Position numbers and translations under genes: made by a program. From the IMG/VR virus record IMGVR_UViG_3300029288_000084, positions 32,001-96,000 of that record: a DNA stretch of 64,000 nucleotides; one strand, given 5' to 3'. The notes beneath the pieces were generated by a model, which saw only the letters and a list, made by a program, of their open reading frames with translations, made no database searches and was not told where the DNA came from. Positions 31,994 through 54,693 of the stretch are shown piece after piece (position 1 is the first letter of the stretch; each line of letters begins with the position of its first letter). Origin of the DNA: a virus. Taxonomy: Duplodnaviria > Caudoviricetes.

Positions 31994-33586
31994 TCAGGAC
32001 CCATTGTTTGCCTCCATGTTTATTTCTTTGACTTCGTAAGGAAAACCTTCTTTACTATAATACTTTAAACGAGCATTGTGATGTATAAATGAAAAATTAT
32101 CTACTCTGTGCATTCTACCTGTTTCTTTGTTGAGTTCCATTACAGATAGATTATCAACTATATCTATAACTGTGAGTCGTTTTTTTGACTCATGAATTCT
32201 TAGACCTCGACCAATAGCTTGCAACACTCTTATCTTTGATTTGCTTCCAGCAGCTGAAACAATATTGTGTAGATTTTTAATATTAATTCCAACGCCAAAA
32301 ACTTGAACTGATGCAACAACGATGCAGTTAGAATCTCGTTCACAATGAGCTCTTACTTCCTCTCTTATTTGAGCAGGAGTTGAACCATCGATGTAAAAAA
32401 CTTTATTTATACCTTTCGTAAGTTCAGTTATTCGATTAAATAAATACTGGCCATGTTCAATTCGAGTAAACAAAACAAGGGTATTTTGTTTCATCATAGA
32501 AACTAATCTACAAACCGCTTGATTTCTTCTTATGTGACTGTAGATATATTCAATTTCTTTTTGAAAAGCTTTTTTATTATCACCCTGAGCTAACGCTAAT
32601 TGACGCATTAATTGACATTCTCGTTCAGGATATTTAAATACGTAAGGAAATATTTTTATCGGTGATAAGATACCTTTTTCTATCAAAGTTTTTGTTCTTA
32701 TGATTTGATAGATTTCACCTACAAGTCCATTCATTACTAAATGATGAACTGGCCAATCATCAGTTGTTCCAGTCGCACCTAAACGCCAATCAGCATTTAT
32801 ACAACTTTCGGCAATTTCAATCAAGCACTTTGCTTTTCCATATTGATGAAATTCATCGAGAATAATTGCTTTGAATCTTTTGAAATAGTTTATCATAGAG
32901 CCATAAACTGGCTTGATATGTATACTTTGTATAGATTGCCAAGTTGATATTGTAATTTGTTTCGAAGTGTTTTTTTCCAATCCACTCATAATAATGTGAA
33001 TTTTATCACCAATAACATTGTATTTTTCATCATAGTGAATAAAATCACTTTGCATTTGTAATACAAGAGAAGTTGTTGGAACAACAAGAAGAATCTGTTC
33101 ATCAGATTTCAAAACATGTTCCAATAAATATTTGATATAGAGATAATATGCAAAAGATTTACCAGAGCCAGTTGGTGAAATAGCAACAAGACGCTTCAAG
33201 TATAAAGCAGCTTTTAGTAGATCTTTCTGATGCTCGTAAGTTCCTTTGATATCATCAGGTGGTGTGATAGATGAAATAAAATTTTCTATTTCAGAAATAG
33301 GAATTCCTTTATTTATATCATCAAATGAATTATCAATTTCATATGTGATACCTAATTCATTTAATTTTTGGATTAATTTATCTTTTAATCCAATATACAT
33401 TCTACCAGTTTTTTTCTGATATAAGTAAATTTTACCATCCCAAACACCCGCCCTGAATTTTGGTTGATACCAACTATCAGGTAGTATGTAAGACAAAGAT
33501 TCAACAAGATTTTTTTCTATCCCTTCATCTTCAGGAATGGCTAAAAGGTAACTTTCGTTAAGTTTTGTGATTGATACGTTTGGCAT
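31994..33586 (-). CDS. uvsW: SF2 DNA helicase UvsW
   Basis: WDGKIYL, PTGSGKS, DEFH, GATGT, QAIGRGLR. Confidence 0.95.
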   Translation of the reverse strand: MPNVSITKLNESYLLAIPEDEGIEKNLVESLSYILPDSWYQPKFRAGVWDGKIYLYQKKTGRMYIGLKDKLIQKLNELGITYEIDNSFDDINKGIPISEIENFISSITPPDDIKGTYEHQKDLLKAALYLKRLVAISPTGSGKSFAYYLYIKYLLEHVLKSDEQILLVVPTTSLVLQMQSDFIHYDEKYNVIGDKIHIIMSGLEKNTSKQITISTWQSIQSIHIKPVYGSMINYFKRFKAIILDEFHQYGKAKCLIEIAESCINADWRLGATGTTDDWPVHHLVMNGLVGEIYQIIRTKTLIEKGILSPIKIFPYVFKYPERECQLMRQLALAQGDNKKAFQKEIEYIYSHIRRNQAVCRLVSMMKQNTLVLFTRIEHGQYLFNRITELTKGINKVFYIDGSTPAQIREEVRAHCERDSNCIVVASVQVFGVGINIKNLHNIVSAAGSKSKIRVLQAIGRGLRIHESKKRLTVIDIVDNLSVMELNKETGRMHRVDNFSFIHHNARLKYYSKEGFPYEVKEINMEANNGS

Positions 33587-49004: not shown

Positions 49005-50687
49005 TTATGCATTAATTAAAACTTCACTGAAGTTGACATCAGTTCCAACAGCAATGAAGTTTAATTTGATAAACTCAGCAGCACGAGCAGGTTTGATATA
49101 AATATCACCAACAAATTCATTGGCATCTATGATTGCACCAGTATTGTTTGTAGTATCACAAATAACCTTGTAATCAAAAATGCCTCTGCGACCTTTGATT
49201 CTACGAAGGAAAGGTTCAACCATTAACTTGAATAATGTTCTCTGATAATCATCATTGAATTCAAAAATCATCCACTTAGCAGCTGAAGAAATAGCTTTTT
49301 CTAGAACAATGAATAGTCTTCGGACATTGATTCTATCAAAAGCAGATGGAGCAGAGAGCATTGTTTTCTGACCCCAAGCAACATTTCCTTCACCTGGGAA
49401 AGCAACGATTGGGTTGATGTTGTTTTTGTATAATGTATCTCTGTAAGCTTTTGTAGGATAAATAGCAAATTTGATAACATTCTTGATTTGACCTCTGACT
49501 AAACCTGCAGGTGGATACCATGCATCAGTCAATGTCTCAGATCTTGCAAGAACACCAGCCATATCTCCTGACATTGGAATCCAACGATACTTGTCAGTAT
49601 ACTTATCGTAAATATACTTCCACTGTGCATAGATTGCAGCATAAGAAGAGTTTTTATTCAATGTGGTGTTTTTGTATGTAACACAAGCTGTGATTGAAGT
49701 TGAAAGATCCCCAGCCATAACAGCAGAAGCAGGAATATCTAAAATAGCCATTGCATCTAAACGAGTGTCACAAATATCAACTATATATCCTTGGCTTACT
49801 TCGTCATTGTTAGCACCGTCAAATAGTAAGCTAATATCAAATTCTTCTGGATTTGCAAATAGATCATAACCTAATTCGATATCAGCAACTGCAGGGGTTC
49901 CATCAACACCACCAGCAAGATAAGTTGCTTCAAAAGACATTGGGCTTAAAGCAATTGTAGTATTATCAAAAGCATAAATCCACTGAGACTTTTGATTGAT
50001 GACATTCTCAATATAAGTAGATTTGCCATATGAATCTTTTGCATCAGGATCCATATCAACTAGCCACTTTTCTACTAATGTCCAATTATCATCTAAATCA
50101 TTTTTTGCCATAACAGCAATTGCCAATTGATCGTATTTGTCATATGTATTCGAAACAGGTGCATATTCAAAATTGTTGACAAATGTTAATGAACCAGCAA
50201 TTATGTTGGCAGTTGCAAAATCATCTGCAGTTGCTAAGGCAACCTTGATTTTGGTATTGCCAAGAGCACCAGGATATTTAGCAACAATATGTAACTTTTC
50301 ATGAGCAGCAAAAGTAATTGTTGGAATGCCAGAATAATTTGGAATATAAGGATTTGATCCTATTGTTAATACAGCAGTAGCTTGACCTTCATCAGCAACA
50401 GCAATACCAGCATTTTTAGCTGTATCATGATCTACAGCTCTGACTAGATACAGGCTACTTGCGTAACGTAAAAATTCTGCAGCTGAGTGCCAATGCTGAA
50501 AGTTAGTGTCAAGTGGCAATCCGAAATAAGAACAAAGTTCTTTTTCAGTTGTTACTTGTTTTCTTTCAAAACAAGGACCCCAAGAAAAGTTACCTGCCAT
50601 ACCAGCAATAGTAGTTGCTATTTGAGCTACGCCTAATGTGGTATCAAACTCTTGAATTGTAACCGAAGGACTTAAACTAAATGCCAT
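49005..50687 (-). CDS. Tail sheath protein (gp18-like)
   Basis: SPSV...E.D, FSWGP, WYPPAGLVRG, FDRINVRRLF, FEFND, IKPAR. Confidence 0.97.
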   Translation of the reverse strand: MAFSLSPSVTIQEFDTTLGVAQIATTIAGMAGNFSWGPCFERKQVTTEKELCSYFGLPLDTNFQHWHSAAEFLRYASSLYLVRAVDHDTAKNAGIAVADEGQATAVLTIGSNPYIPNYSGIPTITFAAHEKLHIVAKYPGALGNTKIKVALATADDFATANIIAGSLTFVNNFEYAPVSNTYDKYDQLAIAVMAKNDLDDNWTLVEKWLVDMDPDAKDSYGKSTYIENVINQKSQWIYAFDNTTIALSPMSFEATYLAGGVDGTPAVADIELGYDLFANPEEFDISLLFDGANNDEVSQGYIVDICDTRLDAMAILDIPASAVMAGDLSTSITACVTYKNTTLNKNSSYAAIYAQWKYIYDKYTDKYRWIPMSGDMAGVLARSETLTDAWYPPAGLVRGQIKNVIKFAIYPTKAYRDTLYKNNINPIVAFPGEGNVAWGQKTMLSAPSAFDRINVRRLFIVLEKAISSAAKWMIFEFNDDYQRTLFKLMVEPFLRRIKGRRGIFDYKVICDTTNNTGAIIDANEFVGDIYIKPARAAEFIKLNFIAVGTDVNFSEVLINA

Positions 50688-50822
50688 TATTCACCTTCTC
50701 CGTTCTTAGTAAAACCAAGAACAATTGATTTTGTGTATTTCATTAATACACCTCCTTTTCAAAAATATATATAAAAAAGCCTCTAAAAATCATTATTTTT
50801 TATTTTTTTGACACGGAAAAAT

Positions 50823-50853
50823 TACTAAATAAATACCTTAATTATTATATAAT
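50823..50853 (+). promoter_or_regulatory. Promoter TACTAAAT-N17-TATAAT driving the plus-strand unit
   Basis: Exact motif; the only plus-strand copy I found. Confidence 0.75.
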
Positions 50854-50879
50854 GTATTTGATGAATAAGAAGAATTTAA

Positions 50880-51460
50880 AATGTGAAAGAGTTGATGATT
50901 TCAAATCAACAAGGCAGGTAAATCTTTTCAGCTTCTGTTTCTTTGATTTACCAAATCGCCAAAAGATCACGCGCGTAGGAATATGATCATGCTAAACAGA
51001 AGCGCTAATACTTTGGCTGTATCATTACGAAACAGCCCCCGTAGCAGTGCGATCATGCCTTCAGGGGTGAAGGGTCAGGGATCGTACGGCCAGCCCAAAG
51101 GAGACAAGCTCACTCCCCGGTACGATAAGCTGGGGCTTTATGTTGTTTTAGGGGAGATGAAAAAAATAACGGTTTTTGGGAGTATTTTTTCCAGCTTTGC
51201 CACTGATCGCTTGCGAGATGGGCAGGGGAAGTCGACCGAAAAAAATATTCTTAGTTTTGTGGTGTGTACTACCATGATGCTGATCACATTATGGTTCGCC
51301 AAAAACATCCACTTCTCCGTGATTAGGAGACAGCAAGCATGCTGCTGGAATTATTAAAAAATGCTCGTTATTCTGGGCCAAATCCAGTTCCAGAATTCGC
51401 TCTTAGGCTACACCGAGTTTAAGAGTGTTATACCAAGTACGTTAAGCTTGGTTGCAATAA
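50880..51460 (+). ncRNA. Putative large structured non-coding RNA (about 580 nt), class unassigned
   Basis: Visibly GC-richer than its flanks; more than 12 stems with G-U wobbles on the plus strand; a pseudoknot; promoter directly upstream. Ends are approximate. Confidence 0.75.
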
Positions 51461-51478
51461 TAAAAAGGGGAGTTAAAA

Positions 51479-51694
51479 ATGTACGAACGGTATGATCATC
51501 ATGGAAAATTAGTTTGGGTTAGGAAAGATTTGAAAGGAAAGCATCGCGAACATTGTCTTTGTTTCAGTTGCAGTAAGTTGAATATTGAAGATCGAGAAAA
51601 AAATTGTCCTATTGCAAATGCTTTATTTGCTCTTTGTGTTCAATTCAATCTTACTACTCCAGTGTTTGAATGCCCTGAATTTAAAGAGGTATAA
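51479..51694 (+). CDS. Small Cys-rich protein (putative metal-binding)
   Basis: RBS GGGGAG; HCLCFSC...CPIA...C...ECPEF. Confidence 0.75.
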   Translation: MYERYDHHGKLVWVRKDLKGKHREHCLCFSCSKLNIEDREKNCPIANALFALCVQFNLTTPVFECPEFKEV

Positions 51695-51695
51695 A

Positions 51696-52064
51696 ATGAC
51701 ACATGAGGAAATTGAAAAAGATCCAAGATTTATTGTATTGTCAAATTATAGTTCAAAAGTATACGAGTATAAGGTTGCTGTATTTAGTTTACAAGTCAAA
51801 TATGATTTGTTAAAGAAAGAACAAGAATTCAAAAAGCAAAGTGTGATTGCTACGATTGCTGCAGAAAAAACAGAAGATGGGAAAAAGAAATTTGGCAATG
51901 AGGATCAAAGACAAACTGAGTTTCAAAAACGATTAGAGAATGATGAAAACTATCATTCTAATGAAAAAGAATTGCAGTTACTTTATGCTGAAATCCAGAG
52001 AAAAGTAATTGAAATTTCATACTTGCTTACCGAAATAGAAAATTATCGTTTATTCGTAAAATAA
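51696..52064 (+). CDS. Coiled-coil hypothetical protein (122 aa)
   Basis: ATG at 51696 with GAGGT RBS; the track ORF starts further upstream. Confidence 0.7.
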   Translation: MTHEEIEKDPRFIVLSNYSSKVYEYKVAVFSLQVKYDLLKKEQEFKKQSVIATIAAEKTEDGKKKFGNEDQRQTEFQKRLENDENYHSNEKELQLLYAEIQRKVIEISYLLTEIENYRLFVK

Positions 52065-52075
52065 AAGGAGAAAAA

Positions 52076-52380
52076 ATGTCAGAAATCAAAATCATTGTTT
52101 TAAAAACAGGTGAACAACTTTTAGCTAGGTTGAATATGGAGATGGTACAATTGTGATGGAAAAACCAGTTATGATGTTTCCTCTCCCCGGTAATAAGATT
52201 TCATTTAGAGATTGGATTATTGGAGCAAAATTAGATAAGGTAGCTGTTAAGAATGAAAATATCAATGTTGTAGTTGATCCTTCAAAAGAAATAGAAGATA
52301 TTTACGTTAGCAGTACTTCTAAAATTCAAGCACCGCCTCTTGGTGCGAAGATGTCTATTCTAGGAAACAAGCAATCTTAG
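52076..52380 (+). pseudogene. Sm/LSm-like protein gene with an apparent 1-nt frameshift near 52127
   Basis: AGGAG RBS. MSEIKIIVLKTGEQLLA continues in the -1 frame as VEYGDGTIVMEKPVMMFP...W...VVVDPSKEIEDIY...SKIQAP, matching the pattern I recall for Sm-like proteins of T4-like/cyanophages. Confidence 0.6.
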
Positions 52381-53816
52381 CCAATTCTAATAACTGATAG
52401 CATTTTTTCACTATCACCGTCATCATCATCCATAAGAGTTGCAGGTGAATTTTCCATACCATTTGACATTACTATAGCAGATACTTGGGAATCTATTTGA
52501 ACTTGATGTTCTTTTAAAAATTTCTCTCTAAAACTGATTGGCGCTTCTATGAATTCATCTAAAAACCCAGTTGATTGAACACAAGAGAAAAATACCAATC
52601 CCATAACCATATCATCGTGATAACCAGTTTCAGCTTCGTAACTGTTATTTTTTCTAACAAATTTATAAAATTCACTTATTGTATCAAAGTCATTGACTAT
52701 TAACTTTTCATATTCCATCAATGTTCTTAAATTGCCGCAGCCAACTCTTTTTGTTCTTGTTGTTGTTCTAAGTCCCAATTCTTTTTTATTTTGTTCCATA
52801 TAAAGCATAGAATCAGTTCCTATATCGTTAGCTAAAATATCAAGAACATCTTTTCCAAAACCTATGTTATTTTCAATGATAGTTAAAGTGTTCTCACCGC
52901 CGTACATTTTTATGAGTTCATCATAAATTGTTGCATAGTGTTGATATGGACATTCAGAATCTCGATAAGTTGCAACTTGTTCATATGGGCTTGTAGAAAG
53001 ATCAATAACAGAAATTGTATAGAAATCTTGTTTTTTACCTTCGCTTGGATCTCCAACTATAGCGTAGTAATGACCTGGTATGACTTTGCCCAATGCCTCA
53101 TCCTTTTTGAATAGTATTGGTTCTTGATAAATTTTTAACTTATCTTCATAGTAAGTTCGAATTGGAGTTTTGTGAGTTAATTCAGCTAGCTTTTTACCGC
53201 CAATTAAAGTGTCTGAGGAACCTAGAATTTGACAATCATATTCTTGGTTCCACATCATTTCGCCGATGTTGCTTATTGTTAATTTCTTAAATGCTTCATC
53301 TCTACCAGGAATTTCATTCCATGCAACTTTCAAATACTTGAATTGACTGCGACCTTCAACAGCTTCATTCCAGAATTTAGCAAAGTGATTATATCCAATT
53401 GGAGTGGATGAAAGTGTAATTCTTGAATGCTTGGCTGAAGAAATTGTAGGATAAATGGATGCTAAGAAGTCAGCAGCCATATTAGAATTTGTTTTTGAAC
53501 AATTGTGGCAAGTTATTCCATTGCCTATATAATGGTTTCCGTCCCGTACATTTAATAAATCATAGAAAAAATTCTCTTTTTTAACTTTTTCAATTTTTTT
53601 AATTCTTTTATTTTGAACTATATCTCCAATATTTAAATTTTTTGCTTTTACAAACATATTATTTTGTTTTATTTTATGTTCATTTGAACATTCAACTACA
53701 GTTTTATTATTAAAAATTATTTTTAGTGATTCATTTTTAATTGTTATACTTATACCATCAAAATCTTTCCAACCATTTTCTGTTAAAACTTCGTAATCAG
53801 ATGTTAATATTTTCAT
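52377..53816 (-). CDS. Terminase large subunit (gp17-like), C-terminal half, starting with a 105-aa split-intein fragment
   Basis: ...NGITCHN|CSKT...SIYPTISS, SSTPIGYNHF, QEY, GDPSEG, IENN, HDDMVM. Confidence 0.95.
   Translation of the reverse strand: MKILTSDYEVLTENGWKDFDGISITIKNESLKIIFNNKTVVECSNEHKIKQNNMFVKAKNLNIGDIVQNKRIKKIEKVKKENFFYDLLNVRDGNHYIGNGITCHNCSKTNSNMAADFLASIYPTISSAKHSRITLSSTPIGYNHFAKFWNEAVEGRSQFKYLKVAWNEIPGRDEAFKKLTISNIGEMMWNQEYDCQILGSSDTLIGGKKLAELTHKTPIRTYYEDKLKIYQEPILFKKDEALGKVIPGHYYAIVGDPSEGKKQDFYTISVIDLSTSPYEQVATYRDSECPYQHYATIYDELIKMYGGENTLTIIENNIGFGKDVLDILANDIGTDSMLYMEQNKKELGLRTTTRTKRVGCGNLRTLMEYEKLIVNDFDTISEFYKFVRKNNSYEAETGYHDDMVMGLVFFSCVQSTGFLDEFIEAPISFREKFLKEHQVQIDSQVSAIVMSNGMENSPATLMDDDDGDSEKMLSVIRIG
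53502..53816 (-). mobile_element. Atypical split intein, long C-fragment
   Basis: CSNEH block B, FYDLLNV, terminal HN, Cys+1. Confidence 0.9.
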
Positions 53817-54693
53817 TAATTTTTCTCATTAGTTTATTAAAAACTTCTTCTTTATTTTTGTAATAATCATGTTCCCAAATTTCTATTACTCTATATCCAG
53901 CAAAAATAGCAGCATTTACTTTTTTCTTCCAATACACTCTATATTCTTTGGGTGTTATACCTCTATGTTCTTTATTTTCATCCGGAAATAAACTTTCATG
54001 ATAATGCCAATATGTACCATTAAATTCTACAATTAATTTTAAATCTTTTATTGTAAAATCATAAGAGTAATATTTTGTTTTTTTATCAACATCATTGAGA
54101 ATAAATTCATTATTAAGTGGGTTAAATCTAACACTAGATTTTAATTTATTATCTAAAGCATTGTAAATATTCCAACTTAGTTCCTTATGCCATTTTGATA
54201 TACTATTCTGCGAAGCTTCTCTATTCATTATTGATTTTTCTGATTGGAAAGAATTTATAATTCCATACTTTTTTAATAAAGTATTTTTTCTTTTTTCTTT
54301 ACACTTTACACTTTTAGATCTTTGTGCAAGTATTTTGTTTCTTTCAATTACTTCATTTTTATGTAAAATATGCCAATTGTGAATTTTTGTTCTTTTTTCT
54401 TCTGTCCATAAATAAGAAGTTTTATCTCTACCTATAGTCCCTTCTTGATATGATTTAGTAATACATTCTAGTGAATTACACCTTTTAAAAAATCCCTTGT
54501 TAATACTAATAAATACTGAAGATTTATTACAATATTTACATTTAGGAATATTACTATGCAAAATATATTTTGCATAGTAATCTTTTGGTTGTATTGAATG
54601 TTTTTTAATATGTTTGGTAAAATTTGAATTTTTTGCATTTTTATAAAATATCTTACTACAAATTTCACAAGTTATTATTTGATTATTTTCCAT
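53797..54693 (-). CDS. Free-standing Vsr-like homing endonuclease between the terminase halves
   Basis: YDFTIKDLKLIVEFNGTYWH...IWEHD; N-terminal Zn fingers. Confidence 0.8.
   Translation of the reverse strand: MENNQIITCEICSKIFYKNAKNSNFTKHIKKHSIQPKDYYAKYILHSNIPKCKYCNKSSVFISINKGFFKRCNSLECITKSYQEGTIGRDKTSYLWTEEKRTKIHNWHILHKNEVIERNKILAQRSKSVKCKEKRKNTLLKKYGIINSFQSEKSIMNREASQNSISKWHKELSWNIYNALDNKLKSSVRFNPLNNEFILNDVDKKTKYYSYDFTIKDLKLIVEFNGTYWHYHESLFPDENKEHRGITPKEYRVYWKKKVNAAIFAGYRVIEIWEHDYYKNKEEVFNKLMRKINENINI

Follow-up and report, generated by a model that had tools for sequence, protein, structure and literature searches.

A probable mosaic of structured, non-coding RNA modules behind a phage promoter

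Pairing selected on the plus strand in two modules

We analysed a 64,000-nt stretch of viral DNA (the window; positions 32,001 to 96,000 of the 152.9-kb IMG/VR record IMGVR_UViG_3300029288_000084), in which about 580 nt directly behind a promoter (50880-51460) had been picked out as a candidate for one large, ornate, pseudoknotted non-coding RNA (ncRNA). Two parts of this region, here called modules A and C, are selected for pairing on the plus strand and are conserved above the neighbouring genes. They are very probably functional structured RNAs, and with the same high confidence we take the region to be a mosaic of modules rather than one unit. Compensatory changes, together with the absence of conserved open reading frames (ORFs), support the part of the original prediction that described a structured, non-coding RNA specific to one strand and selected for pairing.

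Relatives were drawn from about 200 loci retrieved by synteny, starting from relatives of the tail sheath gene on one side of the region and of a Cys-rich gene on the other. Three of them (L006, L007 and L040) keep the order of sheath gene, leader, 78-aa Cys-rich gene and terminase gene. They align to window positions 50819-51013 in nhmmer and are 79% identical over 50908-50999 in blastn; the nhmmer match of L006 takes in module A and the promoter-side flank only. Module A (50891-51003) comprises a hairpin, P0, and a pseudoknot domain with helices P1, PK and P3. In the window, P0 pairs GUUGAU with AUCAAC, P1 pairs GGUAAAUC with GAUUUACC, PK pairs GCUUCUGUUU with AAACAGAAGC, and P3 pairs GAUCA with UGAUC. 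The corresponding strands in L006 are GUUAGCCC/GGGCUAAC (P0), GGAAGUC/GACUUCC (P1), GCAA(A)CUGUUU/AAACAGUUGC (PK) and GGGCA/UGCCC (P3). All four helices are thus intact in both despite the divergence in sequence, including P0, whose counterpart at this position in L006 is longer (8 bp) and has little of its sequence in common. The 14-nt loop of P3, CGCGCGURGGAAUA, is conserved.

A covariance model built from the window and its near-identical variant L048 found L006 at 68.9 bits (E 1.8e-11). In the covariance-model alignment of these three sequences, all 23 pairs of P1, PK and P3 are paired in each sequence (100%), and five pairs are altered on both sides. Controls in which the partner strand was slid by 1-3 columns were 31-43% paired, with 0-1 double changes. 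P1 (8 bp) contains one double change and has lost a whole base pair on both strands, and PK (10 bp) contains two double changes. Because P1 and PK cross, and both are paired in the divergent relative, the predicted H-type pseudoknot is supported, each of its helices separately in three sequences and with compensatory changes in L006. Identity of module A to L006 is 78%, compared with 67-70% for the flanking genes. A search with covariance model R2 turned up no copies of module A beyond these. We also considered an HDV-like ribozyme topology for this module and dropped it on inspection, since there is no room for a P3 between the 5′ strand of PK and the 3′ strand of P1.

Module C spans about 295 nt and forms a multi-hairpin domain with at least eight helices. 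Its homologue is found in L030, a locus whose sheath protein is 73% identical to that of the window. The shared part is limited to 51172-51465, and in L030 it follows immediately on a promoter of the same class. The two modules are 95% identical over 286 aligned nt, with sharp homology borders; the corresponding values are 74% for the sheath gene, 76% for the Cys-rich gene and 65% for the upstream spacer. RNAalifold on this pair of sequences gave 91 pairs, none of them broken and seven compatibly changed, one of these on both sides. The differences concentrate in helix H4, where GC>UA, GC>GU and GU>GC changes all keep the pairing and a bulged U is deleted. H1 carries a UG>CG change and H9 a UA>UG change, and two changes in L030 retain the candidate long-range stem 51172-79/51299-306 as G-U pairs. 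Changes of the GC>GU and UA>UG type preserve pairing on the plus strand only. The module folds with a z-score of -2.5 in the window and -3.2 in L030; the single-sequence folds of the two disagree in its centre (51230-51320).

Over the region as a whole, the features first noticed by eye hold up well. GC content reaches 44-48% over 50900-51400, compared with 27-37% on either side. All 14 stems listed in the original prediction are complementary: a base-by-base check found no mismatch in the 13 of equal length, and 51180-91/51238-50 pairs if a single bulged base is disregarded. Five stems contain G-U wobbles, as had been claimed (four of the 13, and the bulged stem, which has one). The plus strand of the 581-nt stretch folds at -177.4 kcal/mol (z = -3.41, with none of 100 shuffles as good) and the minus strand more weakly (z = -1.80), a thermodynamic signal that is moderate overall.

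The overlapping ORFs are unconserved and do not show the marks of protein-coding sequence. A 124-aa ORF (50983-51357) matched only itself among 5.8 billion proteins and had no Pfam or PHROG match, and its frame is broken in L030 by indels of -1 and +2, so the coding-type conservation that would have spoken for a protein is absent. The reading frame in module A differs between the window and L006. Shine-Dalgarno (SD)-like sequences do precede ATGs at 51158, where a 66-codon ORF begins, and at 51340, where a candidate 27-codon ORF begins, and L030 retains an in-frame ATG, a good SD and the same N-terminal 30 codons. However, both of the two substitutions in the shared N-terminal part are non-synonymous, nucleotide identity remains at 100% past the L030 stop, and in a further relative, L202, only a 5-codon ORF follows the conserved SD and ATG just past the terminator-like hairpin. 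Between the window and L030 the 27-codon ORF has stayed open, with a single non-synonymous and a single synonymous change, too few to judge translation.

Different module combinations at one site

The site between the terminase and sheath genes varies in content among relatives. Modules A, B or C are carried only by L048, L006/L007/L040, L030 and L202 among the roughly 200 loci (nhmmer and blastn; L202 by alignment). Writing P for the promoter, the order is P-A-B-C in the window and L048, P-A-D-D in L006, P-C in L030 and P-D in L008 and L118, where D is a further unit described below; L202 reads B-D, its contig beginning inside the terminator-like hairpin of module B. In the remaining relatives the gaps are too short for such RNAs. 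Because relatives hold different combinations of modules at the same site, the 580 nt are not one evolutionary unit.

L048 is a 97.8% identical variant with three differences in 50880-51472, as against 16 in the promoter spacer (50778-50874). L202, whose Cys-rich gene is 87% identical to that of the window, carries the terminator-like hairpin, then unit D in place of module C, and then the gene; an unbroken run of about 23 nt of the hairpin is identical to the beginning of the L202 contig (alignment, by eye). L030 and L202 both come from JGI sample 3300037067.

Module B (51014-51149) lies between A and C. Its stems are complementary and are present in the minimum-energy fold, and by eye it bears a loose likeness to positions 616-628 of L006 (GGCUG, UACGAAA). 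It ends in a hairpin resembling an intrinsic terminator, with five G-C pairs, a folding energy of -10.9 kcal/mol and a pair probability of about 1.0 (51115-51135), followed by a U tract.

In relatives, the position of module C is taken by unit D, a leader motif of about 65 nt. Its elements are, in order, AAGGUU, the closing helix P1, the anti-SD-like RAACCUCCU, a hairpin that varies, GGU.AUC, a palindrome of 6 nt, GUAAAA and the return strand of P1, and it ends about 20 nt ahead of an SD and AUG. Three of its P1 pairs covary. The palindrome covaries as well (CGAUCG, CAAUUG, CAGCUG), which hints at RNA-RNA dimerisation. No Rfam family matches unit D. We also considered unit D as a component of the window itself, and rejected this when its covariance model (R1) missed module B. 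The freshwater-2 family (RF02980) resembles the unit D leader in being short and ending at the SD and AUG, and its model aligned to L006 767-851 at 23.8 bits (E 0.24; gathering score 49.9). Membership was rejected on the grounds that this match is below threshold, owes most of its score to the SD/AUG part and has no counterpart in the window, L008, L118 or L030. Behind the D-only leaders of L008 (527-608 and 699-800) and L118 (about 220-130, minus strand) are short hydrophobic ORFs with strong ribosome-binding sites, one of which, in both loci, forms a predicted membrane anchor fused to the N terminus of the Cys-rich protein.

The region had no blastn match among GenBank phages and no second copy in its own 152.9-kb genome (BLAST and model R2). 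Exact-motif scans of IMG/VR with the cores of module A, module C and unit D returned only the known contigs or chance coding matches, and two core motifs found nothing in 596 Gb of prokaryote genomes, so that no host source came to light there.

Nor does the region match a catalogued RNA family. Against Rfam 15, the scan called for in the original prediction gave no match in the whole window at the gathering score, ROOL, GOLLD, OLE, raiA and HEARO included, and at E up to 10 only four chance-level matches over 50500-51900 (snoRNA, MS2, psRNA6 and KCNQ1OT1). In the relatives, matches at the gathering score were limited to tRNAs, one tmRNA and one twister ribozyme, all elsewhere, and an E-value scan of L118, L008, L030 and L048 gave chance-level matches only. 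ARAGORN found no tRNA or tmRNA gene in the window, in keeping with the earlier report that signatures of tRNA, tmRNA, RNase P and introns are missing. As for the suggestion of a new RNA class, no Rfam family matches and the folds of A and C appear new within these searches, but the region is probably not a single RNA.

Promoter, downstream operon and feature coordinates

The phage is T4-like. The window carries genes for a gp18-type tail sheath protein and a large terminase, and its relatives carry Gp23, the gp21 protease and a scaffold protein. As originally described, the long ORFs of the window all lie on the minus strand, with the sole exception of a unit at about 50850-52380 between the sheath and terminase genes. 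The promoter of this unit, which had likewise been noted, belongs to a repeated phage class, CTAAAT-N17-TATAAT. Of its eight copies in the window, one lies on the plus strand and seven on the minus strand, in every case the coding strand of the genes downstream. L006, L008 and L030 have it at the equivalent position ahead of their leaders, and it is visible by eye in L118. At the seven other promoters of the class, an SD precedes a start codon that lies 15-21 nt downstream of the -10 box. At the plus-strand promoter, by contrast, 625 nt separate the -10 box from the ATG (51479) of the first supported gene, a leader length that is exceptional among the window's promoters of this class. Coordinates of these and the other features are collected in Table 1.

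Table 1. Features of the region, its surroundings and the unit D copies of relatives
Feature	Position	Strand	Basis or detail
gp18-type tail sheath gene	49005-50687	minus	protein-family matches
Phage promoter CTAAAT-N17-TATAAT	50825-50853	plus	motif scan; transcript start inferred near 50860
Other copies of the promoter motif	35305, 27846, 20627, 13375, 12439, 9981, 6542	minus	motif scan
P0 hairpin, 6 bp	50891-50910	plus	base-pair probability 0.98; precedes pseudoknot
Module A H-type pseudoknot	50917-51003	plus	P1 50917-24/50945-52; PK 50931-40/50994-51003; P3 50965-69/50984-88
Module B hairpins (predicted)	51015-51089	plus	51015-20/51032-37; long irregular 51039-43 + 51050-54 / 51080-89 enclosing 51058-63/51068-73
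Intrinsic-terminator-like hairpin CCCCGG/CUGGGG with interrupted U tract	51115-51149	plus	terminator scan; end of A+B
Module C, multi-hairpin	51172-51465	plus	L030 homology, RNAalifold
Module C helices H1, H4, H5	51195-203/51220-27, 51259-67/51305-12, 51271-79/51287-95	plus	
Module C helices H6, H7	51314-18/51326-30, 51331-35/51340-44	plus	
Module C helices H8, H9, H10	51370-76/51390-96, 51398-409/51416-27, 51432-38/51446-52	plus	
Candidate 27-codon ORF, AGGAGA ribosome-binding site	51340-51423	plus	read from sequence, inside module C
Gene 1, 71-aa Cys/His-rich protein, first supported gene	51479-51694	plus	homologues
Gene 2, 122 aa	51696-52064	plus	segment AEKTEDGKKKF.NEDQRQ common to L006 and L008 counterparts
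Gene 3, DUF6561-like, possible Sm-like fold	52076-52380	plus	frameshifted near 52127-52131 in assembly
Unit D copies	L006:644-720, L006:747-823, L008:437-504, L118:252-319, L202:62-128	L118 copy minus	

Gene 1 of the operon encodes the Cys/His-rich protein. This protein is widespread in phages; its relatives number 22 among viral contigs and 332 among metagenome contigs. The family set (the window gene plus loci L009-L117) shares conserved residues, Cys at positions 26, 28, 31, 43 and 65 along with His at 7, 8 and 22. Its AlphaFold2 model reaches a pLDDT of 97, and no structural relative was found for it in the PDB. Most homologues of the gene lack a long leader, with a gap of less than 50 nt to the previous ORF. 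Genes for tRNA or tmRNA occur at 13 of the 97 Cys-rich gene loci and at none of 80 sheath loci, an unequal control in that the sheath loci lie in structural-gene regions. In L069, L090, L109 and L115 such a gene directly adjoins the Cys-rich homologue. In the viral contig L009, a type-P5 twister ribozyme (2070-2132) scores 45.7 bits, which exceeds the gathering score; the homologue is about 1.9 kb downstream of it.

A 122-aa gene also occupies the position of gene 2 in L202. For gene 3, two frames are needed to match the intact homologues of 99-105 aa; the sequence reads AGG TTG where the relatives imply AGG GTT, a difference that reflects either misassembly of a G run or a genuine frameshift. 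Its DUF6561 score falls just under the cut-off. An ESM Atlas cluster annotated Sm_like matches it at a TM-score of 0.81, with predicted models on both sides, and an Sm-like fold is therefore a lead only. Gene 3 is present in L031 without any such RNA. The large terminase gene on the other side (52377-54693, minus strand) is split between two ORFs that overlap (298 and 479 aa), in contrast to the single ORF of 567 aa in L006. The extra part matches PHROG 3339 at the end of the first ORF and, weakly, Intein_splicing at the start of the second; it looks like an intein with a homing endonuclease, apparently frameshifted within the insert.

Possible roles of the leader

The reading we favour, and consider reasonably probable, is that 50860-51478 forms the non-coding, structured 5′ part of the operon transcript, arranged as a chain of cassettes A, B and C. 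Transcription would start near 50860 at the promoter and yield A+B. Termination of some transcripts at the hairpin with its U tract may then produce an RNA of about 290 nt, and those that read through would carry module C and the three genes of the operon (71-aa Cys-rich, 122-aa and DUF6561-like). With a partial stop followed by read-through into the genes, the leader would set the expression level of the operon, and it may additionally yield stable structured RNAs. The leader is probably cis-acting or a source of such RNAs; that its main role is cis-regulatory rather than trans-acting is a tentative call, to which we give slightly less than an even chance.

Riboswitch and attenuator leaders, as well as the HK022 put RNA, are promoter-proximal, cis-acting leaders that control termination or translation. 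The region resembles them in placing a structured RNA behind a promoter, then a terminator-like hairpin and then genes, with a pseudoknot at its 5′ end. It differs in its unusual length (about 620 nt) and three stacked modules, and our analysis identified no ligand, protein partner or alternative antiterminator fold for it. No curated riboswitch or leader matched by sequence or model (Rfam 15, E up to 10). Riboswitch and attenuator leaders combine mutually exclusive folds with a conserved sensor, and assignment to this class was rejected, the sole alternative pairing found being thermodynamically unfavourable.

Several observations weigh against the favoured reading. That alternative pairing, which we tested as an antiterminator (51090-94/51129-33 with 51100-03/51113-16), is 6 kcal/mol worse, with an ensemble probability of about 0, and is not competitive. 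The U tract behind the hairpin, CUUUAUGUUGUUUU, is interrupted and is still weaker in L202, and terminator-like sites occur no more often in this sequence than after shuffling. Windows of 150 nt gave z-scores of +0.6 to -2.6, values matched by some nearby coding windows. Modules A and C each have one divergent relative only, which leaves covariation statistics thin. A G51178C change in L048 would break a predicted G-C pair in the long-range stem at the base of module C, and the 95% identity of this module could stem from recent transfer rather than constraint. Finally, the covariation among homologues that the original prediction had looked to is seen in module A, with its five double changes, and in H4 of module C, but does not extend to module B, whose only full-length homologue is the near-identical L048 and whose hairpins are accordingly predictions.

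A serious rival, though one that we consider unlikely, is that A+B, C and, in relatives, D are stable RNA cassettes released from the transcript to act in trans on factors of the host or phage. They might, for instance, divert a defence system as decoys, or work together with the Cys-rich and possibly Sm-like proteins of the operon. Consistent with this, the cassettes swap among close relatives as self-contained units, and A+B is laid out like a small-RNA gene, with a promoter, a structured body and a terminator hairpin. The tRNA and tmRNA genes found beside Cys-rich homologues, the possible Sm-like fold of gene 3 and the dimerisation suggested by the palindrome of unit D point the same way. 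However, most homologues of the Cys-rich gene do without a leader, L031 has gene 3 and no such RNA, the Sm-like lead comes from predicted models with DUF6561 under its cut-off, and the sheath loci are an unequal control for the tRNA association.

We think it very unlikely that the region is one ncRNA of about 580 nt, of the ROOL or GOLLD type, folding and acting as a single unit. ROOL (RF03087) and GOLLD (RF01998) are large ornate RNAs, often found in prophages, and the region is like them in being several hundred nt long, rich in stems and phage-borne. Its whole-region fold (z = -3.4) and the joint presence of A, B and C in L048 with just three changes would also fit a single RNA. Yet neither family matched in Rfam even at E up to 10, and the likeness that the original prediction drew to them finds no support there. 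Unlike ROOL and GOLLD, the region is a chain of separable cassettes with an internal terminator-like hairpin, forms an mRNA leader, is not beside tRNAs and is known from a handful of closely related metagenomic T4-like phages. The single ornate RNA originally proposed is also at odds with the relatives: module A occurs without C in L006 and C alone in L030, each half folding by itself, and D replaces C in L202. In the full-length minimum-energy fold, long-range pairs between A and C are few and only outermost.

The region could also have no present function, as GC-rich foreign DNA or decaying genes shuffled within a hyperplastic region, its stems being incidental or acting as DNA or terminator hairpins; this we regard as highly improbable. 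The site is indeed variable among relatives, the borders of module C homology are sharp, its high identity would mean recent transfer, and local z-scores are ordinary. Shuffling of modules in T4-type phages is reported at PeSLs (PMC2839356, PMC4122927), short cassettes of a promoter and a stem-loop that flank variable ORFs. The region is like PeSLs in that a repeated phage promoter (eight copies in the window) borders variable segments and modules are shuffled among close relatives; unlike them, the shuffled content here is long, structured non-coding RNA with covariation. Compensatory double changes in four helices of module A and in H4 of module C argue against a lack of function, as do the far stronger conservation of the region than of the adjoining promoter spacer in L048, the absence of a source for two core motifs in the prokaryote genomes searched, and the lack of a protein homologue for the ORF. 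That the region instead encodes small proteins (the 66-codon, 27-codon or 124-codon ORF) is extremely improbable, for although the SD-like sequences, the N-terminal codons retained in L030 and the small hydrophobic ORFs with strong ribosome-binding sites in the equivalent spacer of L008 speak for it, there are no protein homologues, and frames are broken by indels between the window and L030.

Structured leader and non-coding RNAs of phages are known as a general kind. Within the searches made here, what appears to be new are the folds and the cassette-like exchange of RNA. It is doubtful, though worth stating, that the interchangeable A/B, C and D cassettes are functional RNAs in their own right, a previously undescribed set at one promoter-proximal site that is traded like accessory protein genes. 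Such cassettes could be stable trans-acting RNAs, or components of ribonucleoproteins with the Cys-rich and Sm-like proteins, with roles for instance in counter-defence or in the control of host RNA metabolism.

Catalogues of structured non-coding RNAs cover lytic phages poorly. The locus described here adds at least two folds absent from Rfam (modules A and C), together with unit D in relatives, each with support from compensatory changes, and its close relatives exchange RNA cassettes at one site in a manner akin to the accessory protein genes of hyperplastic regions. If the cassettes are functional, phage plasticity regions would trade RNA modules as well as ORFs, and would provide new pseudoknot and multi-helix folds for structural study.

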